Positions 11,148 through 63,249 of a stretch of 64,000 bases of DNA are shown here, in pieces; the first letter of the stretch is position 1; each line of letters starts with the position of its first letter. The stretch is from Pseudomonadota bacterium (lineage in GTDB: Bacteria; Verrucomicrobiota; Verrucomicrobiia; Limisphaerales; SXTU01), in assembly GCA_009924135.1 (NCBI GenBank), contig RFSE01000004.1, positions 12,893 through 76,892 of the forward strand, written 5' to 3'. The notes under the pieces were generated by a model that did no database searches, was not told where the DNA came from, and saw nothing but the letters and a program-made list of their open reading frames with translations. The position numbers and the translations under genes were made by a program.

Positions 11148-11837
11148 TTAAAATATAGTCTGCTTGACCACGATCACATCCCCCGGAGAAACAAGGAACG
11201 GTTTGGCATTTAGGTCCCGCATCATCGCTTTGACATCTTCGGTAAAAACCTTCTCCTGCCCACCCACCATCCGTTTAACGGTTACCTTTTCCTGATTGGC
11301 CAAGTTGGTGAAATCGCCTGCCAACGCGATGGCCTCCACCAAATTGACCTTCAGCCCTTCAGGAAGTTCCACCAGTCCCGGCTTTTTTACCTGGCCACTG
11401 ACCGTGATGCGGTCGAGTTTTTTTGCCACCACGACATTGGTCCGCGCTGTTTGCACCAATGTCACCGTAACGCCGGCCGATTTCAGATAGTACTGTTCGT
11501 AGAGTTCCTTGATGTGAAGATTGGCTTCCGCGATGGGCTTTCCCCCCAGTTTAACGGTCCCGATCAGATGCAAGGTGACCGTCCCGTCCTGATCCACTCG
11601 GGTTTCAGTCGTCAAATCAGGTTCACGATAAACGGCAACCCGGATTAAATCATTCGGCCCCAGCACATAACTGGCGTTGGTCGCCTGTCCTGCCACCTGG
11701 ACTGCAGCCGGAGCGGTTTGCGCGTGGAGAGTGTCGTTCAATCCTCGCCACGCGAAAGTGAAAAGAAATACGCAAGCAGCCGCCCACAGAATCCTGCAGG
11801 CGGCTGCTTTAATCGATTTGATAGATTTGCTTGCCAT
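11148..11837 (-). CDS. Polysaccharide export protein (Wza-like, Poly_export + SLBB)
   Basis: 229 aa with a signal sequence. YVLGPNDLIRVAVY... and DGTVTLHLIGTVKLGG are typical of the Poly_export domain. Confidence 0.8.
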   Translation of the reverse strand: MASKSIKSIKAAACRILWAAACVFLFTFAWRGLNDTLHAQTAPAAVQVAGQATNASYVLGPNDLIRVAVYREPDLTTETRVDQDGTVTLHLIGTVKLGGKPIAEANLHIKELYEQYYLKSAGVTVTLVQTARTNVVVAKKLDRITVSGQVKKPGLVELPEGLKVNLVEAIALAGDFTNLANQEKVTVKRMVGGQEKVFTEDVKAMMRDLNAKPFLVSPGDVIVVKQTIF

Positions 11838-13162: not shown

Positions 13163-13762
13163 CTACTTCTTCGACGGGTTCGAGACGTTCTTCGACGGGT
13201 TCGAGACGTTCTTCGACGGGTTCGAGACGTTCTTCGACGGGTTCGAGACGTTGAGATTATTCAGATTGCCCGCCACCGGATTACCGAAATCACCTGCGGT
13301 GAGTGTAGGCACAAACGGCAGCAACACAGTGATAATGTTACTCTTCTGAGCAGAGGCACCCTCACTACCGCCCGCCGCAATCGCCTTTACGAGTTCAACC
13401 TTCATGCCCGGGTTGCCCGACGCAACACCATTAGCAGCCGCCAAGCAGATGGCAACGGACGAGTTGGGCAGCAGGGCGCAAGCCTGACGCACGGCTTCCT
13501 GCAGCTCTTCGCGGCCAACGCCCGGCTTGGAGCCGAGGTAGGCCACGATCTTCTTGGCCATGTCTTCCTTGTCAGCGGCAGGTGTGTTTTTCAGAATGTC
13601 CGCCACCTTCTGGCCGATTTTCTTGCCCTTGACGCCATCCAGCTCATTCTTGTGAGTGGTGGTCAGGTTAGCCTCGGCTGAAGCGTCGTAGGTGAAGCAC
13701 ACACCCGTGAGCAGGAGGGTTCCGAGGGCGAGGGACTTGATGATGTTGGCGGCAGTTTTCAT
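13163..13762 (-). CDS. Secreted protein of unknown function with C-terminal (NVSNPSK)x4 repeat
   Basis: ATG at 13762 gives the signal peptide MKTAANIIKSLALGTLLLTGVCF...A/EA. The ORF-track start at 13786 is TTG. The C-terminus is built from 4 perfect 21-bp repeats. Confidence 0.7.
   Translation of the reverse strand: MKTAANIIKSLALGTLLLTGVCFTYDASAEANLTTTHKNELDGVKGKKIGQKVADILKNTPAADKEDMAKKIVAYLGSKPGVGREELQEAVRQACALLPNSSVAICLAAANGVASGNPGMKVELVKAIAAGGSEGASAQKSNIITVLLPFVPTLTAGDFGNPVAGNLNNLNVSNPSKNVSNPSKNVSNPSKNVSNPSKK
13169..13252 (-). repeat. Perfect 21-bp tandem repeat x4 (coding VNTR)
   Basis: CTTCGACGGGTTCGAGACGTT is repeated four times without a mismatch at 13169-13189, 13190-13210, 13211-13231 and 13232-13252. 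Confidence 0.95.
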
Positions 13763-25802: not shown

Positions 25803-26127
25803 CCTAAGCCGGAACCATTCTTTAGCCACAGATGGAACACAGATGAAACACAGACAGGGACGCTCCTCTGTTGGGTTCTACGCGGGATGGACCGTTCACC
25901 CAAAGAGGCATCCAGTTGGGAAGCCTAGCAGCCTGTTCAAAAACTGTAGCGGCGCTCTGTGAGCGCCGAACGAAACGAGAGAACAGGCCCAAACTCGGCG
26001 GTCATAGACCGCCGCTACAGCGGGCAGGGCGTTTTTTTTAACGGACTGTTAGCTGGTGACCAAAGCTGCGGCCATCTGTGTTCAATCTGTGTTTCATCTG
26101 TGGCTCAAATGCATCGGTCCGGCTAAG
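25803..26127. mobile_element. Composite/nested MITE-like element (family A termini around a second palindromic element)
   Basis: Termini are TAAGCCGGAACCATTCTTTAGCCACAGATGGAACACAGATGAAACACAGA and the reverse complement of CCATCTGTGTTCAATCTGTGTTTCATCTGTGGCTCAAATGCATCGGTCCGGCTAAG. Flanked by direct TAAG. The inner inverted repeat is CTGTAGCGGCG...CGCCGCTACAG. Confidence 0.7.
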
Positions 26128-41341: not shown

Positions 41342-42712
41342 TCACGATGAAGCGTGCGATTTCAGCAGATAGGCACGGAAGGCTTCATAGTCCGCACCCA
41401 TGTGGTCGTAATCCTCCGGCTGATGCAAACCGGTGTTCATGGCAGCGGGGACGTCCGGAGCCCAGCCGACGACCTTCTCCACTTCCTCGGGGAACTTGGC
41501 GGGGTTCGCCGTCTCGATAATGACGGCGGGCGTGGAGCCGATGGACTCGGCGGCGCACCAGTCGAGGAAGCCCTGCCACGCCACGACCCCATGCGGCTCG
41601 AGCAGGATTTGATACTTGTTCCAAAAGTCCCGCAGCGACGTGCGCGTACGCTCATCGGTGATGGAGGTGGAGAAGACATCGCGGCGCATCGCCACGAGGT
41701 CGGGCGGCCGGTGAATCTTGCCGGTCTCGTCCATCTGGCCACCGTAAACGGCCACGAGGCGGGCGAGGTTGCTGGGATGGCCCACATTCATCGCGTTGGA
41801 GACGGAGTTGCGCGAGGGGGAGATCTTTTCGTAAACGCCGCTGTGGAGGTAGCGCGGGAAGGAGTCGTTGTCGTTGACCGAGGCGATGATTTTCCGCACG
41901 GGCAGGCCCATCTCGCGCGCGACCACGGCGCCCATCATGTCGCCGAAGTTGCCGCTGGGAATGGAGAAGACGATGGGTTCACCGGGCCGTGCGAGGCGCG
42001 AGGCGGCGTAGAAGTAGTAAACGCTCTGCGGCAGGAGCCGGCCGATGTTGATGGAGTTGGCGGAGGACAGGTGGATGTGCGCCAGCGCAGGGTCGGTGAA
42101 CGCACGTTTGACCATCGCCTGGCAGTCGTCGAACTTGCCGTCCACGGCCACGGTGCGGACGTTCTCCTTGAGCGTGGTCATGAGCTTGCGCTGGCTCTCG
42201 CTGACCTCGGCGAGCGGGAAGAGGACGATGACCCGCACCCCGGGAATCTCATGGAAGGCATGTGCGACGGCCGCGCCGGTATCACCGCTGGTGGCCGTGA
42301 GGATGGTGACCTCGCGATGTTCCTCCTTCAGGAACCGGCCAAACATCTGCGCCATCATCTGGGCCGCGAAATCCTTGAAAGACGCCGTGGGGCCCTGATC
42401 CAGGCGCATCAGGTAGATGCCGCGCTGAATGACCTCCAGCGGGACGCCAAAGTCATACGCCTTGCGGCACATCTCGGCGAGGGCGTCGTCGGGAATGATG
42501 CCCTCGGTGAATTTGCGGAGCACGCGGAAGGCGACTTCGCGATACGGCAGCTCGGCGAACTCGGCGATTTCCAACGACGTGAGCTGCGGGAAGCGCTCGG
42601 GCAGATACAGGCCGCGATCCGGGGCCTGCCCGGCGAGGAAGGCTTCCCGGAGGTTGACGGCGGGGGACTGGCCGTTGGTGCTGCGAAACAAAAGCGCGCT
42701 CATCTTACTCAA
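41342..42712 (-). CDS. thrC: Threonine synthase
   Basis: 456 aa. Contains the PLP-lysine motif TASFKDFAAQ and the N-terminus ...GLYLPERFP, typical of the long ThrC form. Confidence 0.9.
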   Translation of the reverse strand: MSKMSALLFRSTNGQSPAVNLREAFLAGQAPDRGLYLPERFPQLTSLEIAEFAELPYREVAFRVLRKFTEGIIPDDALAEMCRKAYDFGVPLEVIQRGIYLMRLDQGPTASFKDFAAQMMAQMFGRFLKEEHREVTILTATSGDTGAAVAHAFHEIPGVRVIVLFPLAEVSESQRKLMTTLKENVRTVAVDGKFDDCQAMVKRAFTDPALAHIHLSSANSINIGRLLPQSVYYFYAASRLARPGEPIVFSIPSGNFGDMMGAVVAREMGLPVRKIIASVNDNDSFPRYLHSGVYEKISPSRNSVSNAMNVGHPSNLARLVAVYGGQMDETGKIHRPPDLVAMRRDVFSTSITDERTRTSLRDFWNKYQILLEPHGVVAWQGFLDWCAAESIGSTPAVIIETANPAKFPEEVEKVVGWAPDVPAAMNTGLHQPEDYDHMGADYEAFRAYLLKSHASS

Positions 42713-44072
42713 AGCTTTCTACCCGGATCATGACGGGGGCTGATTTTACAACCGGCAGTTTGGCAATCGCCGACAGCGCGCGTTTCATCGCGGCGTTCGG
42801 TGCGTCGTGGATCATCAGGATGACCGGGACGGTTTCCCCGGCATGGCCCTCCGGCTGGATGATGGAAGAGATGCCGATCTTCGCCTTCGCCAGAATGTCC
42901 GCGATCTTCGCGAACACTCCGGGCCGGTCCTCGACGGTCAGCCGCACGTAATAGCGGGAGACCACGTCATCCATGGGCAGGACCGCGCCGTCGCGCTCGT
43001 GCGGGATGAACGGCGGGATGCGGTTTTTGGTGCCGCACTTGAGGTCCAGCGCGGCATCTGCGAGATCGCTCAAGACCGCGCTGGCCGTGGCGTCCTGGCC
43101 CGCGCCGCGCCCGTAGTAAAGCGTGTCGCCCACGACATCGCCGCGCACATAGACGGCGTTGAAGACGCCGTTGACGTTGGCGAGGACGTGGGAGTTGGGG
43201 ACGAGTGCGGGATAGACGCTGACTTGAATTGCGAATTGCGAATTGCGAATTGCGAATTTGGTACCGCGCGCCGGCCGCCCATTCCCCATTCGCAACTCGC
43301 CATTCGACATTGTCTTTACGCAACCCAGCAAACGGATCGTATAGCCCAGCTTCGCGGCAAACTCGATGTCCTGCTTCGTGATGTTGCGGATGCCCTCGGT
43401 GTAAATCTGCTTCGGGTTCACCCAGAAACCGTGCGCGAGGCTGGCGAGAATGCCGGTCTTGTGCGCCGCGTCGTGGCCGTCGATGTCCAAGTCCGGCGGC
43501 GTTTCCGCGTAGCCCAGACGCTGGGCGTCGGCGAGCACGGCGTCGAAGTCCGCGCCCTCATCCTTCATGCGCGAGAGGATGTAGTTGCATGTGCCGTTGA
43601 CGATGCCGAAGAGCCGGGTGATGCGGTTGCCGATCAAGCCTTCGCGCAGCACCTTGATGATCGGGATGCCGCCCGCCACGCTCGCCTCGTAATACAGGTT
43701 CGTCCCGTGCTGCTGGGCTGCGGCGAACAGTTCTTCGCCGTGCGCGGAGAGCAAGGCCTTGTTCGCGGTGACGACGGGCTTGCCGAGTTTGAGCGCCGCG
43801 AGCACGACCTGCCGGGCGGTGGTGGTGCCACCCATCAACTCGACGACTAGGTTCACCTCGGGGTCCGCAACGACGCTCTGCCAGTCCGTGGTGAGCAGCC
43901 CGGCCGGGATGTTCACCGCGCGGGCTTTCTTCAAATCGCGCACGGCGACGCGCGCGATGGTCAACGACACGCCAAGACGCGACGCCATCAAAGCGCCGTT
44001 TCGCCGGATGGCTTCGTAAACGCCGCCACCGACGGTGCCGCCACCAATCATGCCCAGATTCACCTGCCGCAT
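42705..44072 (-). CDS. hom: Homoserine dehydrogenase (with an about 25-30-aa repeat-derived insertion) plus ACT domain
   Basis: GMIGGGTVGGGV, NAVYVRGDVVGDTLYYGRGAGQDATASAVLSDL, and a C-terminal ACT domain. There is an 8-nt overlap with thrC. Confidence 0.9.
   Translation of the reverse strand: MRQVNLGMIGGGTVGGGVYEAIRRNGALMASRLGVSLTIARVAVRDLKKARAVNIPAGLLTTDWQSVVADPEVNLVVELMGGTTTARQVVLAALKLGKPVVTANKALLSAHGEELFAAAQQHGTNLYYEASVAGGIPIIKVLREGLIGNRITRLFGIVNGTCNYILSRMKDEGADFDAVLADAQRLGYAETPPDLDIDGHDAAHKTGILASLAHGFWVNPKQIYTEGIRNITKQDIEFAAKLGYTIRLLGCVKTMSNGELRMGNGRPARGTKFAIRNSQFAIQVSVYPALVPNSHVLANVNGVFNAVYVRGDVVGDTLYYGRGAGQDATASAVLSDLADAALDLKCGTKNRIPPFIPHERDGAVLPMDDVVSRYYVRLTVEDRPGVFAKIADILAKAKIGISSIIQPEGHAGETVPVILMIHDAPNAAMKRALSAIAKLPVVKSAPVMIRVESFE
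43224..43312. repeat. Intragenic tandem-heptamer hairpin element (GAATTGC x4 / spacer / degenerate complement)
   Basis: Four perfect GAATTGC units at 43226-43253, a 20-nt GC spacer, then ATTCCCC ATTCGCA ACTCGCC ATTCGAC at 43281-43308. Confidence 0.85.
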
Positions 44073-46296: not shown

Positions 46297-46492
46297 CCGG
46301 ACCGATTCATTAGCCACGGATGAAACACGGACGGAACACGGATGGGAACGCGATGAACACGCGTTTTGTCGCAGTTGCCTGCCTGGACCAAATGGTGCGG
46401 GTCAAAAAAGCGGGGCAAGGCGGTCCTTGCACAGTTGGTTCTGTGTTTAATCCGTGTTCCATCCGTGGCTCAACTGCATCGTCCCGGCTTAG
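46292..46492 (+). mobile_element. MITE, family A (about 200 bp), between arsC and arsD
   Basis: TIRs are GCCGGACCGATTCATTAGCCACGGATGAAACACGGA and the reverse complement of TCCGTGTTCCATCCGTGGCTCAACTGCATCGTCCCGGC. Flanked by direct TTA(G). The core shares CACGCGTTTTGTCGCAGTTGCCTG and GGTGCGGGTCAA with the inverted copy at 63053-63249. It has no coding capacity. Confidence 0.8.
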
Positions 46493-51448: not shown

Positions 51449-51648
51449 CGGCGTTCCAGCTCTTCGATCAGTTTCTCGATCCGTTGCAAGGCGGCCTGTG
51501 ACGATTTGCTCCTTCGCTCCCAACGTTTGTCGCGCTCCGCCATCTCCTTCTGAATTACGGCAACGTGCCGGTCATATTCGCGCAGTGCCGTGAGGAAATC
51601 GGCCTCGGTAACTTCCCCCTTCGCAAGGGGTGGAGGTTTGGTCTGCAT
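51439..51648 (-). CDS. Small hypothetical coiled-coil protein
   Basis: 69-aa ORF MQTKPPPLAKGEVTEADFLTALREYDRHVAVIQKEMAERDKRWERRSKSSQAALQRIEKLIEELERRPC with non-shadow composition. No family assigned. Confidence 0.4.
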   Translation of the reverse strand: MQTKPPPLAKGEVTEADFLTALREYDRHVAVIQKEMAERDKRWERRSKSSQAALQRIEKLIEELERRPC

Positions 51649-51698
51649 AGTCTAGAAATTAGTCCTGGCGATGGAACTGGTCAATGCGCTGATTCAAT

Positions 51699-51894
51699 GG
51701 GCGCATCTTGACACTGCCCCCGGAGCGCGGCTGTGTCCCGCTCGGCGCGGGATCAGCCGCAGCAACGACAGAAGGCTGAGCGGGGGCGTAACGCCGCACC
51801 GCCTCCTGCCAGGCGCAGCCGCTGCGGCTGGTCTCCGCGACACAGCCGCGCTCCGGAAGTGTTCGTTCCTCGGGGGCAGTGGCAAGATGCGCCC
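51699..51894. mobile_element. MITE, family B (196 bp) with about 65-bp TIRs and a perfect 9-bp target-site duplication
   Basis: The left end is GGGCGCATCTTGACACTGCCCCCGGAGCGCGGCTGTGTC... The right end, reverse-complemented, is GGGCGCATCTTGCCACTGCCCCCGAGG..CCGGAGCGCGGCTGTGTC... Direct TGATTCAAT occurs at 51690-51698 and 51895-51903. Confidence 0.85.
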
Positions 51895-51898
51895 TGAT

Positions 51899-54800
51899 TC
51901 AATCCACATACACAAACTCGTTCACATTCAGCAGCGCGCGGCAGAACTCCGGCAGGGCGGTCGGGCCGTGCTTGGCGAGGAACGCGCCCGCCTGCTCACG
52001 CTCGGCAGCACTCGGGGCACGGCCGAGGGTGAGCCACACGGCGCGTTCGATTTGTTTGGCGGCATCGTTGCCCGCTTCGGTCGTGACCCGTGCGGCAAGG
52101 GCTTTGGCCGCGCGCAGGGAAAACTCACTGTTCAACAGGTTCAGTGCCTGCGGGGCGACGGTCGTCACGTCGCGCCGGGCGCAGGAGAACGAGGTGTCCG
52201 GCAGGTCGAAGGCTTGCAGGAACGGCAACGGCACGCAGCGCTTCTGGATGAGGTAGAGCGAACGCACGTCGCACTCCTCCTCCTTGTCCGCGTACCAGCC
52301 CTGGCGACGGCCGCTGTCCTTGCCTTCAAGCCCCTCCAGCACGCCAGGCTGGGCCCGCAAAATCTCCTCGGGCAATGGCGGCCACAACGGCTTGCCCCCG
52401 GCGTAGGGTCGCAGCTTGCCGGAAACGGCCAGCAGGGTGTCGCGCATCGTTTCCGCATCGAGACGGCGCGGGTTTTGCCGCCAGAGGAGGTGGTTGTCGG
52501 GGTCGAGGGTCGAGGGTCGAGGGTCGAGAGCGCGTGCGCTCGACGCCTTCCGGCCTTCGGCTCTCGACTCTCGACTCTCGGCCACACTCACCTGCCGATA
52601 CGCCGCGGTCGTGACCATCAGCCGGTGCATCGCCTTGATGGACCAGCCGCGCGCGACGAACTCCGTGGCCAGCCAGTCCAGCAGTTCGGGGTGCGTGGGC
52701 TTGGCCCCGGCGTAGCCGAGGTCGTTCGGATTCGCGAAGAGCGCCGCACCGAAATGGTGCTGCCAGAGGCGGTTCACGAGCACGCGGGCAGTGAACGGAT
52801 TCTGCGGCGTGGCGATCCATTCAGCCAGCGCGAGCCGGCGTCCGGTCGTGCCGGAAGGCGGGGCTTTCACCTTGGCGGGATTCGGGTCCAGCACGGAGAT
52901 GAAACCAGGCTGAACTTCGTCGCGCGGTTCGGTGAAGTCGCCTTGGTAGAAAAGCTTCGTCGGCTCCACGCCGCCCTCGCTCACGGCCATCGCGACGGTG
53001 TACGCGCGCTTCTGCTTCTTGAGTTCGTCCACCTTGGCAGTGGCTTCGGAGTGACGCTTCTTGCCGGCTTCGTCGAGGGCCGCGAGTGCGTCCTTGTCGC
53101 TGACCTTCAGCTTTTCCAACTGCGGTTCGAGTTTCTTCTTCGTGGCCTCGTCGCGCTTGGCCTCGTCGGTCTTGAGCAGCTCCTGAACGTCAGCGGGCAG
53201 CTTCGCGATGCGCTCGGCGCGCAGCTTCTGGCGACCGGGGGCGAGCGCCTCCTCCACGGCCTTTTGCGCGTCGATGACCCGCTTGTCCACGCCGGCATTG
53301 TGCGCCTTGATGGCTTCCTGTTCGGGCGCGAGATCAATGGGCTGGTCGTCGCGTGATTTCACGGCGGCGAAGAAGGCGCGGAAGCGGAAATGATCCGCCT
53401 GCGAGAGCGGGTCGTACTTGTGATCGTGGCAGTTGCAGCAGGAGAAGGTGAGGCCGAGGAACGCGCTGCCCGTCGTGTTGACGAGATCGGCCATCAGATC
53501 GTTCCGCAGCTTGCGATCCTCCTGGAAGATGCTCGCCGTGCTGTCGTACGTGCCGAGCCGCAGGAAACCGGTGGCGATGAGCGCGTCCGCCTCGGCCGGC
53601 GATTTCGGCGGACCACTCAACGACTCGTCCCCCGCCAACTGCTCGCGGATGAAACGGTCGTAGGGTTTGTCTTCGTTCAAGGAACGCACGACGTAATCGC
53701 GATAGCGCCACATCTCCGGGCGGAACTCATCGCGTTCGTGGCCGTTGGTGTCAGCGTAGCGCACCACATCGAGCCAGTGACGCGCCCAGCGTTCGCCGTA
53801 GCGCGGGGATGCCAGCAGCTTGTCCACGAGCTTTTCGATGGCCGGTTGCCGATTGGCGACGGAGGAACACTCACGCTCGAAGGCCGCGATCTCCTCGGGC
53901 GTCGGCGGCAGGCCGATGAGGTCGAAGTAAAGGCGGCGGATGAGCGTGCGCGGGTCGGCTTCGGGAGAATAAGTGAGGTTCTTCTCGGCGAGCTTCGCCA
54001 GGAGGAAGCGATCGATGGGGTTGGAAGTGTTCAGTTTCCAGTTTTCAGTTTTCAGTTGGGAAACGTTGCCGCCGCCCGCCTTTTTGGTTTCACCGCTGCC
54101 TTTGGCCGACTGAACACTGGACACTGAATACTGAACACTTTCCCCGGGCACACGCGGACGCACGGGTTGTTTGAGCGACCACAGGTCCAGGCGTTCGCCG
54201 CGCCAGATTTTGCGGATGGGATTTTCCGGGTCGGTCCAGGCGTCGCCGAGCGGTTTGGCGGGGGCGGCGATCTTCAGGGCAAGCTGGCCGTTGCCGGGGG
54301 CGTAGGCATCGAGACTTACCACATCCGGGCCTAGAATGACGCTGTCGAAGAGGGCTTCCTCGCCCTTGTCGCAAGTGGGTGCCAGGCCGGTGAGCGTGCA
54401 ATTACCAAGGTCCTTCCACAGATCCACCGTCACGACCGTCCAGGCCGTCGGCGCGGTGTCGCTCACGGAGATGGCGGCCCAGCCGGTGGTGTTCGGCCCC
54501 GCGACGTAACGACCCTTGGGGTCTTTCGCGTCCGGCCAGGCACCGCTGCGGGCCAGCTCGAACATCACGCTGCCACCGCCGCGCTTCTTCCACGCGAACC
54601 GCATGAAGCGCACCTGTCCCGCCGCCGGCTGCTCGCGCACTTCGAAGTTCCAGCCCGGCACCTTCGGCGCTTCGCGTTGAAGCGGCGTCATGCCCAACGC
54701 GGCCTTGCCGCGAAACACGTCATCGGTCACCAGCCGCGCCCGACCATTGCCGCTGGTCAGCACACTGAGAAATTCCACCTCATCTTCGAAGAGCACCGCC

Positions 54801-55162
54801 ACCGGCTCCGGCCACGGTGCGCCGGCCTGTACCCACGCTTCGAGCGCGGCGATGTCCTTGGCGGGCAGTTTTTCCTTCGGCGGCATCGCGAGGTCTTTCG
54901 TCGCGTGGCGGACGGCCTGGAGCAGGAGGCTCTTCTTCACGTCACCGGGGACAAACGCCGGGCCTTGCTCACCGCCCTTGAGCGCAGCGGCCTTGGAATC
55001 CAGCCGCAGACCACCCTTCTGCTTGTCCGGGCCGTGACAGGAAACGCATTTTTGATCGAGGAGCGGCTTGATCTGGTCGCGGAAATTCCCCACCTCGGCG
55101 CGTGCGGCACGGCACAGCAGAAGTGCGCCGAGGCAGAGCAAAAAAGTTCGCAGCCGGATCAT
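51899..55162 (-). CDS. PSCyt1 / DUF1549 (PSCyt2) / DUF1553 (PSD1) multidomain protein
   Basis: 1087 aa. Contains the heme-like motif CVSCHGPDKQKGGLRLD, NPIDRFLLAKL...LIRRLYFDLIGLPPTPEEI (DUF1549), and FLGLTFSCCNCHDHKYDP (DUF1553). Confidence 0.9.
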   Translation of the reverse strand: MIRLRTFLLCLGALLLCRAARAEVGNFRDQIKPLLDQKCVSCHGPDKQKGGLRLDSKAAALKGGEQGPAFVPGDVKKSLLLQAVRHATKDLAMPPKEKLPAKDIAALEAWVQAGAPWPEPVAVLFEDEVEFLSVLTSGNGRARLVTDDVFRGKAALGMTPLQREAPKVPGWNFEVREQPAAGQVRFMRFAWKKRGGGSVMFELARSGAWPDAKDPKGRYVAGPNTTGWAAISVSDTAPTAWTVVTVDLWKDLGNCTLTGLAPTCDKGEEALFDSVILGPDVVSLDAYAPGNGQLALKIAAPAKPLGDAWTDPENPIRKIWRGERLDLWSLKQPVRPRVPGESVQYSVSSVQSAKGSGETKKAGGGNVSQLKTENWKLNTSNPIDRFLLAKLAEKNLTYSPEADPRTLIRRLYFDLIGLPPTPEEIAAFERECSSVANRQPAIEKLVDKLLASPRYGERWARHWLDVVRYADTNGHERDEFRPEMWRYRDYVVRSLNEDKPYDRFIREQLAGDESLSGPPKSPAEADALIATGFLRLGTYDSTASIFQEDRKLRNDLMADLVNTTGSAFLGLTFSCCNCHDHKYDPLSQADHFRFRAFFAAVKSRDDQPIDLAPEQEAIKAHNAGVDKRVIDAQKAVEEALAPGRQKLRAERIAKLPADVQELLKTDEAKRDEATKKKLEPQLEKLKVSDKDALAALDEAGKKRHSEATAKVDELKKQKRAYTVAMAVSEGGVEPTKLFYQGDFTEPRDEVQPGFISVLDPNPAKVKAPPSGTTGRRLALAEWIATPQNPFTARVLVNRLWQHHFGAALFANPNDLGYAGAKPTHPELLDWLATEFVARGWSIKAMHRLMVTTAAYRQVSVAESRESRAEGRKASSARALDPRPSTLDPDNHLLWRQNPRRLDAETMRDTLLAVSGKLRPYAGGKPLWPPLPEEILRAQPGVLEGLEGKDSGRRQGWYADKEEECDVRSLYLIQKRCVPLPFLQAFDLPDTSFSCARRDVTTVAPQALNLLNSEFSLRAAKALAARVTTEAGNDAAKQIERAVWLTLGRAPSAAEREQAGAFLAKHGPTALPEFCRALLNVNEFVYVD
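52496..52581. repeat. Intragenic tandem-heptamer hairpin element (GTCGAGG units / CTCTCGA units)
   Basis: GTCGGGG GTCGAGG x3 GTCGAGA (52496-52530), a 30-nt spacer, then CTCTCGA CTCTCGA CTCTCGG (52561-52581). Confidence 0.8.
54028..54138. repeat. Intragenic tandem-heptamer hairpin element (TTCAGTT units / ACTGAAC units)
   Basis: TTCAGTT TCCAGTT TTCAGTT TTCAGTT (54030-54057), a 51-nt spacer, then ACTGAAC ACTGGAC ACTGAAT ACTGAAC (54109-54136). Confidence 0.8.
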
Positions 55163-55619: not shown

Positions 55620-56265
55620 TACCGAGTACTGGAATACTCTGGCCGAATCCCCGATTTGAACCAACGAACGTTTTCTCCCTCACCATAAACCGAAGAGGAT
55701 CAGAAAGATGGGGAAGGACCTGAGTTGAAATTTTTCTGACCCCATTTTTCTGACCCATGCAGCTGTCATACCAACTGCGGGAATAGTTTGGTAAAATGGG
55801 GGCGAGTTGTGGCTTGCGTAGCCGTTCTCCCCACCCCGGCCCTCTCCCGCTGGGAGAGGGAGAATCTTCGGCTGTCTTCAATCAAGCGCTGCCGCTTGCT
55901 AACCAGGCCGGGCTTGGTGGCCCCCTCTCCCAGCGGGAGAGGGCCGGGGTGAGGGAGGAAACGTTCGGTGGTTCAAATCGGGGATTCGGCCAGAGTATTC
56001 CAGTAATTGGTATTAAACAGTCCGAAATCGAGCAGCGGCGAAAGTCCCTGAACTGGACCGCGGCCCTCCGGGCCGCAGCGGCAACTTGCGCAAGTGGGGC
56101 GAAAGGAAACCTGCGACCGTTCATTAGCACGGTAACCGCTGCGGGTGGGACGCCTGCGGTCCGGTTCATGGGAATGGGTGGCGTGCGTGGGCGAGGGTGG
56201 CCGCACCCCTCATCCGGCCTCCGGCCACCTTCTCCCCTCGCTCCGCGAAGGGAGAAGGCTCCCAA
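55618..56265. repeat. Repeat nest: 67-bp inverted repeat pair plus three CCCTCTCCC..GGGAGAGGG-type hairpins and a 13-14-bp tandem duplication
   Basis: 55618-55684 is the near-exact reverse complement of 55948-56014. Hairpins are CCCTCTCCCGCTGGGAGAGGG (55840-55860), CCCTCTCCCAGCGGGAGAGGG (55923-55943) and CCTTCTCCCCTCGCTCCGCGAAGGGAGAAGG (56228-56258). ATTTTTCTGACCC occurs twice at 55730-55756. Confidence 0.8.
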
Positions 56266-63052: not shown

Positions 63053-63249
63053 TTAGCCGGACCGATTCAGTTGAGCCACGGATGGAACACGGATTAAACA
63101 CGGAGCCAACGGTGCCAGGACCGCTTCGCACCGCTGCTTGACCCGCACCGTTTGGTGCCGACAGGCAACTGCGACAAAACGCGTGCTCACCCATCCCCAT
63201 CCGTGTTCCATCCGTGTTTCTTCCGTGGTTAAAGAATCAGTCCGCTTAG
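63053..63249 (-). mobile_element. MITE, family A, inverted relative to the 46292-46492 copy
   Basis: TIRs are GCCGGACCGATTCAGTTGAGCCACGGATGGAACACGGA and the reverse complement of ...CCGTGTTTCTTCCGTGGTTAAAGAATCAGTCCGC. Flanked by direct TTAG. The core is the reverse complement of the arsC-arsD copy's core. Confidence 0.8.

Follow-up and report, generated by a model that had tools for sequence, protein, structure and literature searches.

A convergent heptamer repeat translated in frame within a DUF1553 gene of a Verrucomicrobiota bacterium

The DNA considered here is a 64,000-nucleotide stretch of contig RFSE01000004.1 (GenBank assembly GCA_009924135.1), hereafter the window, in which a gene of the DUF1553 family contains two arrays of tandem heptamers that face one another across a short spacer. 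The best reading of this element is that it is a repeat at the level of the DNA, neither a protein motif nor a dedicated RNA gene, built of convergent (inverted) G-rich heptamer arrays, and that the Verrucomicrobiota lineage from which it comes makes and keeps many such arrays. As to its origin, the favoured explanation, to which a probability of roughly 0.55 may be attached, is that of an inverted heptamer repeat driven by slippage, which is tolerated and translated in a permissive loop of the host protein. A single open reading frame (ORF) of 1087 aa passes through the element in frame and free of stop codons.

The element and its predicted fold

The host gene and the parts of the element are as follows.

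51899-55162, minus strand: host gene, 1087 aa, encoding PSCyt1, PSCyt2 (DUF1549) and PSD1 (DUF1553) domains with Pfam E-values of 1e-20, 2e-81 and 1e-82, respectively
52490-52590, strand-neutral: whole hairpin- or cruciform-capable element, including its outer closing pairs, from RNA and DNA folds
52496-52529, plus strand: 5' arm, a G-rich heptamer array of GTCGGG, three GTCGAGG and GTCGAGA; the first unit has 6 nt and the arm 34 nt
52530-52553, plus strand: spacer or loop region, which holds an additional CTCGAC motif and a small stem of its own; poorly conserved across lineages
52554-52581, plus strand: 3' arm of CCTTCGG, two CTCTCGA and CTCTCGG, encoding ESRESRA
52505-52591, minus strand: 29 codons for residues 858-886, VSVAESRESRAEGRKASSARALDPRPSTL, standing where distant homologues have an 11-residue linker (net gain of 18 aa)

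The 5' arm has four G3-4 tracts with TCGA between them, and its product on the sense (minus) strand is LDPRPSTLDP. An earlier, sequence-only reading of this DNA described the heptamer composition of the arm correctly, but gave it a first unit of 7 nt and an end at 52530, where GTCGGG in fact has 6 nt and the arm ends at 52529. The same reading located CTCTCGA CTCTCGA CTCTCGG at 52561-52581 exactly, ahead of which CCTTCGG (52554-52560) forms a fourth, degenerate unit; counted from 52561, the 3' arm is separated from the 5' arm by 31 nt (52530-52560), one more than had been reported. Each unit of the 3' arm has T in place of the C of the perfect complement, and in the sense direction the arm reads (GAGAGTC)n, without a G3 tract. 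The further claims that all mismatches are G opposite T on the plus strand, and that the minus strand is translated as ...YRQVSVAESRESRAEGRKASSARALDPRPSTLDPDNHLLW..., are both borne out.

Repeat searches recover both the periodicity and the pairing. Tandem Repeats Finder detects two arrays of period 7, one of 4.9 copies with 96% matches (52496-52528) and one of 3.4 copies (52557-52580), and an inverted-repeat search finds arms of 24-27 nt that are 81-88% complementary, the pair 52508-52531 / 52560-52583 reaching 88%. As RNA, the plus strand is predicted to fold into one nearly continuous stem of -76.4 kcal/mol (z score of -7.0, with none of 200 shuffles as good), as compared with -53.2 kcal/mol (z = -3.8) for the minus strand, which has the sense of the mRNA. 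The difference is due to the G.U pairs of the stem, of which there are 8 on the plus strand and 1 on the sense strand. With DNA parameters, 52490-52590 folds at -30.8 kcal/mol on the plus strand and -25.0 kcal/mol on the minus strand.

The 5' arm on the plus strand is also a canonical motif of four G3N4 units, such that the antisense arm has the potential to form a G-quadruplex (G4) and the sense arm does not. In isolation this arm is predicted to adopt a three-tier G4 (-11.1 versus -8.9 kcal/mol). As the dominant fold of the intact element, however, a G4 is ruled out, since giving the fold the option of a G4 leaves the hairpin as it was, at -72.7 kcal/mol.

The feature is real and non-random. 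Two perfect period-7 arrays of at least three copies are present in the window, as against 0.0 in 20 dinucleotide shuffles, and the element is therefore not a product of chance; the focal array itself occurs once within the 64 kb. Moreover, since the identical host protein is found in an independent ENA assembly, the element is not an artefact of one assembly.

An in-frame insertion at a recurrently filled linker

The stretch of the host protein from W-S-x-K to RRLDAE has 47 aa in every homologue at 45-66% identity and 65 aa in the window, and within it the linker from YRQ to DPxN has 11 residues in distant homologues and 29 in the window. From these alignments the element is shown to be a lineage-specific in-frame insertion relative to distant homologues, as the sequence-only reading had proposed of its tandem-heptamer hairpin; the comparison of the ESRESR block that it had called for finds the block not conserved in distant DUF1553 proteins, with a length difference at this point in the alignments.

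Close orthologues for which DNA is available (70-84% identity, from Verrucomicrobiota metagenome-assembled genomes, MAGs) all have an in-frame insert at the same linker (12 of 12), which brings the W-S-x-K to RRLDAE stretch to 60-78 aa. The inserts are mostly hairpin-forming and belong to at least four different sequence families. GTCGAGG heptamers occupy the linker in the window and in the orthologues denoted L003 and L162; CAGTNNT heptamers are found in L001 and L008, GTGCGAGG octamers in L002, L012 and L017, GAGTTTC heptamers in L004 and L005, a GTAG-tagged perfect palindrome of 25 bp in L006 and L009, and short hairpins based on CTCGAC/GTCGAG in L007 and L010. Scored on the sense strand with DNA parameters, the quality of these hairpins extends from z = -9.9 at one end to z = -0.65 at the other, a spread which indicates that some copies are decaying and which fits birth and decay. 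All five of the tandem-repeat families at the linker have more G.U pairs in the antisense direction (3-8) than in the sense direction (0-3). The distribution of the families departs from the neighbour-joining gene tree, an incongruence that is only suggestive given that this tree is star-like and carries no bootstrap.

The linker is thus an insertion hot spot, one of three permissive linkers in the gene: the only other internal indel sites in the close orthologues are those termed site 1 and site 3 below (the linker itself being site 2), and these too are filled by heptamer arrays or hairpins. Further carriers were sought by protein search, which returned no candidates with the 64-aa segment around the insert and just four further close partial proteins with the C-terminal 348 aa.

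The AlphaFold model of the host protein, which is of moderate quality (mean predicted local distance difference test, pLDDT, of 64), places residues 860-885 below a pLDDT of 50 between flanking blocks at 79-95; residues 342-378, encoded by site 1, are also below 50 and lie between confident blocks. As low confidence falls exactly at the insert residues, the inserts are probably translated as unstructured loops. The nearest relatives of the protein come from Verrucomicrobiota MAGs labelled Limisphaerales or Pedosphaera. Some MAG records with this verrucomicrobial or planctomycete gene (among L001, L002, L010, L017 and L023) are titled Akkermansia muciniphila, Klebsiella pneumoniae or Kuenenia stuttgartiensis, and are probably mislabelled bins.

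Sister elements and the turnover of arrays

Comparable elements occur elsewhere in the host gene and in a second gene of the window.

54026-54139, strand-neutral: site 1, sister element in the host gene, with 4.6 copies of AGTGTTC/AGTTTTC and 4.4 copies of ACTGAAC; 35-nt arms, 83% complementary
53836-53855, minus strand: site 3, a decayed CAATCGG array (VANRQPAIE), for which orthologues have intact arrays (SIGNRQSAIE)
43226-43311, strand-neutral: hom element, 4.7 copies of GAATTGC and a degenerate inverse, in frame in the homoserine dehydrogenase gene (42705-44072, minus strand)

The likeness of architecture to the hom element that the sequence-only reading pointed out is confirmed, and site 1 extends it to another element in the same gene. 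The product of site 1 is SVQYSVSSVQS...KTENWKLNT; some orthologues have this element and others have SIGNRQSAI, from a CAATCGG array, in its place. The two strands of site 1 are of nearly the same stability (-53.4 and -55.1 kcal/mol), and in the hom element it is the sense strand that is the more stable.

These sister loci show how the arrays change. On the 73-kb contig L040 (3990-4040) the array at site 3 has one CAATCGG unit fewer, and the resulting loss of 7 nt shifts the frame and splits the gene into ORFs of 407 and 667 aa. Either the heptamers have slipped in nature or the assembly has caught a population variant, and the split gene could be a pseudogene or an assembly consensus. Orthologues of the hom gene have between 33 and 52 aa over one conserved stretch; in L003 this holds a plain CAATCGG array anchored on native AAATCGGCAATCCAAG (AAATCGGCAATCC) sequence. 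In L017, the orthologue of the hom element (11456-11545) has one arm of 3.5 GTCGAGG copies opposite an arm that is still ATTCGCC-like, from which it follows that the units of an arm homogenise independently of the partner arm; the arms can thus lose complementarity. The same arm connects the heptamers of the hom and focal elements, which the sequence-only reading had taken to be unrelated. Array copy number is in this way shown to change in nature, with consequences for the reading frame, and units are shown to be homogenised within an arm irrespective of the other.

CAGT-type heptamers occur at site 1 and at site 2 in different orthologues. Separately, the 398-aa protein P0124 has its N-terminal PSCyt1 region joined straight to the C-terminal part at ...VISS..QSLITNHSSAQRLDPDN, which looks like a deletion or a misassembly between related heptamer elements at site 1 and site 2.

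Heptamer arrays in the clade and in metagenomes

Perfect period-7 arrays of at least three copies number 16 in 227 kb from the close clade, whereas distant loci totalling 306 kb have 1 and shuffles have 0; in the same comparison, arrays with periods of 4-6 and 8-12 number 0-2 each. Heptamer arrays are shown thereby to be specifically enriched in this clade. Hairpins of a similar type are also intergenic, as at 3700-3800 in L004 and, in L012, within the loop of a palindrome tagged with GTAG. In the latter case (L012, 3780-3876) the intergenic GTAG-tagged palindrome (GTAGGTGCCGACGTGAGGAGGCTC...) has a loop with three copies of GAATGCG, such that both repeat types are combined.

An exact scan of metagenomes for GTCGAGGGTCGAGGGTCGAG matched at least 120 contigs (L041-L120 among them), and places (GTCGAGG)n arrays at at least 120 loci. 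Among the matches listed, to which the counts in this paragraph refer, the mode of array length is four units (87 arrays). An inverted partner accompanies 24 of the arrays (some 20 of them distinct), and the order of the arms is always (GGGTCGA)n-spacer-(TCGACCC)n, with the partner downstream in 24 cases and upstream in none. The spacers of the roughly 20 hairpins are unrelated in both sequence and length, and the partner arms often have a single variant throughout (CTCTCGA, CCTTCGA, CGCTCGA or CCCTAGA) at independent loci. Of 83 arrays, some 20 fall within long frames that have no stop codon, and in 15 of these 20 candidate intragenic copies the perfect G-rich array is antisense. A polarity rule emerges: whichever strand is read, the 5' arm of every tandem-repeat hairpin is the one rich in G(+T), in these matches and at 52496-52581, 54026-54139 and 43226-43311 of the window, whereas plain palindromes in the same DNA have no such bias.

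Slippage, homogenisation and the uniform mismatch

Under the favoured explanation, the arrays would grow and turn over by replication slippage, the heptamer being the preferred unit as has been proposed for the long simple-sequence repeats of bacteria, and the inverted arrangement would come from a process by which each strand receives its G-rich array on the 5' side. The focal element would owe its uniform G:T mismatch to one G-to-A transition in the sense strand, by which GAGGGTC became GAGAGTC and which then extended across the arm. In this regard, the recurrence of variants of the same type across whole arms at independent loci argues for homogenisation, and not for several independent events. 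The transition may have been kept because it breaks a perfect mRNA duplex of some 30 bp into segments of 6 bp, and also because it leaves the mRNA strand without any G3 tract, whereas the arm on the template strand retains its four G3N4 units; the G.T geometry on the untranslated strand would then be a by-product. In other words, given selection against strong mRNA structure, and given that transitions are common, A.C mismatches in the sense strand (G.T in the antisense) are what is expected, and an antisense RNA is unnecessary.

Several observations weigh against this account. Slippage alone explains neither the inverted arrangement nor the strict polarity (24 against 0 among the matches listed). 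The sense strand is not the weaker one at site 1 or in the hom element, and relief of mRNA structure is thus not general. The intragenic calls in the metagenome contigs rest solely on long stop-free frames. Furthermore, copy-number variation at the element itself was looked for among its three carriers and none was seen: the GTCGAGG elements of the window, L003 and L162 are identical in length, at 29 codons each.

The three carriers also bear on the question through their pattern of conservation. Their arms are 91-100% identical and their spacers 47-77% identical, as compared with 81.7% of nucleotides, and 63.5% of third codon positions, over the gene. The arms are better conserved than the gene average, then, and the spacer much worse, and the A.C/G.T register is kept in all three lineages; the 5' arm in the sense direction is mostly GAGAGTC in 3 of 3. 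The antisense strand folds better in all three (-66.9, -63.9 and -56.3 kcal/mol) than the sense strand (-46.0, -56.7 and -46.1 kcal/mol), and the stem of L162 has uncompensated A-to-C changes. This pattern is the signature of a constraint, be it on the stem or the ESRESR/LDPRPST peptide, and is not predicted for a purely neutral repeat. More broadly, it points to some constraint on the arms, which may lie in structure, peptide or repeat dynamics. A run of 31 identical nucleotides between the window and L003 was considered as exceptional in itself and rejected, since it is just the third longest in the gene (35, 33 and 31).

Alternative explanations

The alternative that survives best, albeit as an unlikely one, is that the element is a small non-autonomous mobile element, of the repetitive extragenic palindromic (REP/REPIN), Rickettsia palindromic element (RPE) or miniature inverted-repeat transposable element (MITE) type, placed by a transposase in a tolerant or targeted site, with the linker struck repeatedly by different families. 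The presence of at least four families in one linker, distributed at odds with the gene tree, is what such a history would leave, but that tree is star-like and without bootstrap. The GTAG-tagged 25-bp palindrome in the linkers of L006 and L009, with a further copy elsewhere in L012, the CAGT-type heptamers at both site 1 and site 2, and the dispersal of GTCGAGG hairpins in metagenomes all speak for mobility, and there is precedent for intragenic REPs that code for 20-30 aa, the verrucomicrobium Opitutus terrae being one of the documented hosts (Di Nocera et al. 2013, PMC3733652). Against this, no GTAG or CGTC tag is present at the ends of 52490-52590, by which REP membership is ruled out for the focal element, although it holds for the inserts of L006 and L009. 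A MITE with a conserved core is likewise ruled out by the unrelated spacers of the roughly 20 GTCGAGG hairpins among the matches listed. A target-site duplication is not definable, as the insert replaces the whole ancestral linker; the window has a single copy of the array; and arms change their unit in situ.

Less probable again is a role in the mRNA, in which the sense hairpin would pause ribosomes or direct RNase cleavage between the parts of PSD1, or in which the element would be a phase-variable contingency locus operating through slippage of 7 nt in either direction. A unit length that is not a multiple of three would suit a switch, and a natural one-unit loss does split the orthologue at the sister array in L040, as the apparent deletion (or misassembly) between site 1 and site 2 repeats in P0124 might also suggest. 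The sense hairpin, too, retains -46 to -57 kcal/mol in three lineages. The arrays are short, however, at 3-5 units; no length variants are found at the focal element among the three lineages, the one change of unit number being that in L040, which could reflect a pseudogene or an assembly consensus; the regular mismatches leave just 6-bp perfect segments in the mRNA stem; and phase variation has no known use in this protein family.

A functional structured nucleic acid on the plus strand is very improbable, whether an antisense RNA hairpin, as the sequence-only reading suggested, or a single-stranded hairpin or G4 in the template strand that modulates transcription or replication: the far more stable fold with every mismatch a G.U pair, the retention of asymmetry and register in three lineages whose arms are conserved and whose spacer is free to vary, the canonical G3N4 arm, the four-unit mode (among the matches listed) shared with the G4-forming Xanthomonas repeats (PMC4692102), and the G.T pairing that in REP stems is taken as a sign of transcription (PMC3733652) have to be set against a scan of 51600-53400 that finds no promoter- or terminator-like site on either strand, a search of the whole window at the Rfam gathering threshold that gives no match, orthologues at 55-66% identity that do without any insert (such that the gene does not need one), unrelated or decayed hairpins in other orthologues, the absence of the asymmetry from both the hom element and site 1, the uncompensated stem changes of L162, and a hairpin that outcompetes the G4 in the full element. 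An intrinsic terminator was considered separately and discarded, there being no T-run after the stem on either strand. The asymmetry of the plus strand is itself real and kept in three lineages, and strand-specific constraint on it is conceivable.

At an equally low level of probability stands a more radical proposal, namely that the tandem-repeat hairpins of the clade, and perhaps those of Xanthomonas, are products of a dedicated mutational process, and not of transposons or ordinary slippage. A candidate would be a form of DNA break repair in which G/T-rich heptamers are added or expanded from a template at the 3' end on either side before the two are joined. Such a process would account for the 24:0 polarity among the matches listed, the unrelated spacers and the repeated rewriting of the same linkers and, were it to exist, would provide a steady supply of new disordered protein loops.

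Other repeats in the window

The intergenic DNA on either side of the DUF1553 gene holds long inverted repeats (55829-55954, 56046-56171 and 51720-51856). The first has 32-nt arms, 97% complementary, derived from a self-palindromic CCCTCTCCCGCTGGGAGAGGG unit, and RNA folds of these flanking repeats reach as low as -106 and -98 kcal/mol. Three MITE-like elements (25820-26110, 46300-46475 and 63060-63240) have terminal inverted repeats of about three tandem 11-mers (CACGGATGAAA / CACAGATGAAA) beside a shared TTAGCCGGACCGATTCA flank; within that at 25820-26110 there is, in addition, a palindrome with a GTAG tag (25944-26020). At 13167-13252 a 21-nt unit (TTCTTCGACGGGTTCGAGACG) is perfectly repeated in tandem, in 4.1 copies.

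Relation to known repeats and implications

The closest known counterparts are the heptamer repeats (GGGAATC)n of Xanthomonas and (GGGGAYT)n of Nostoc. The Xanthomonas repeats have a four-unit mode and form G4 structures, as shown by circular dichroism spectroscopy, and they include 70-75 cases of two convergent arrays on opposite strands, with 7-11% of copies intragenic (Rehm et al. 2015, PMC4692102). The focal element resembles this class in its tandem 7-nt units with a G3 tract (four GGGTCGA and one degenerate unit), in its two nearby convergent arrays on opposite strands with the G-rich arm 5' on both, and in a modal number of about four units, the focal plus strand having four G-tracts and a G4 being predicted for the isolated arm only. 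Stem-loop or cruciform and G4 potential, dispersed loci with unrelated intervening sequence and an intragenic minority are also shared. It differs in its unit, which is GGGTCGA and not GGGAATC or GGGANTN, in its Verrucomicrobiota host, in being fully intragenic, in frame and translated, in having one arm uniformly without G-tracts, and in that repeat families replace one another at its linker among orthologues.

With intragenic REPs and RPEs the element shares palindromic DNA carried in frame by coding genes, tolerated and of some 20-30 residues. In the REP case the G.T pairs in the stem are likewise frequent, the palindromes that code for 20-30 aa include a verrucomicrobial example (Opitutus terrae; PMC3733652), and GTAG-tagged palindromes sit in the same linker of L006 and L009. 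REPs, however, are imperfect palindromes of 20-40 bp tagged at one end, typically mobilised by a cognate RAYT transposase and numerous as near-identical copies in a genome, and the focal element lacks the GTAG/CGTC tag with which the palindromes of L006, L009 and L012 begin; its arms are tandem heptamers and not a unique palindrome, and its copies have no consensus outside the arms. As in RPEs and in-frame MITEs, the insert is in frame, stop-free and translated with the host protein, and 12 of 12 orthologues keep the frame; in contrast to these, there is no whole-element consensus (the spacers of orthologues are 47-77% identical) and no definable target-site duplication. In sum, the element is one with the structure of the Xanthomonas/Nostoc class and a unit outside its consensus, and has neither the tag of a REP nor the consensus of a MITE.

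Long simple-sequence repeats offer a further parallel. Heptamers are the commonest of these, with polymerase slippage as the proposed origin (Mrazek et al. 2007, as summarised in PMC4679880), and the over-representation of heptamers, the restriction to lineages and the proposed slippage origin all recall the present arrays, as do the heptanucleotide short tandemly repeated repetitive sequences known from cyanobacteria and from further large genomes (Mazel et al. 1990 and Mrazek et al. 2007, cited through PMC4679880 and PMC4692102). As described in those citing accounts, such repeats are mostly intergenic direct arrays, for which inverted pairing and in-frame coding are not defining. Phase-variable contingency loci are similar in having a 7-nt unit within an ORF, where a change of one unit shifts the frame as at the L040 sister array, but the arrays here are short, the focal element has no length polymorphism in three lineages, paired inverted arrays lie outside that model and the organism is an environmental, non-pathogenic one.

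For annotation, the consequence is that ESRESR...LDPRPSTLDP is repeat-derived filler in a permissive loop and not a DUF1553 motif. Segments of this kind account for the greater part of the differences in length between these orthologues, and they can split genes, as in L040, or mislead assemblers, as possibly in P0124. The strict polarity of the arms, and the fact that every close orthologue has this one linker filled by an insert, mostly able to form a hairpin but differing in sequence, are points worth study. More generally, the convergent G-rich heptamer repeats of Xanthomonas and Nostoc exist in Verrucomicrobiota too, and can ride in frame inside genes.

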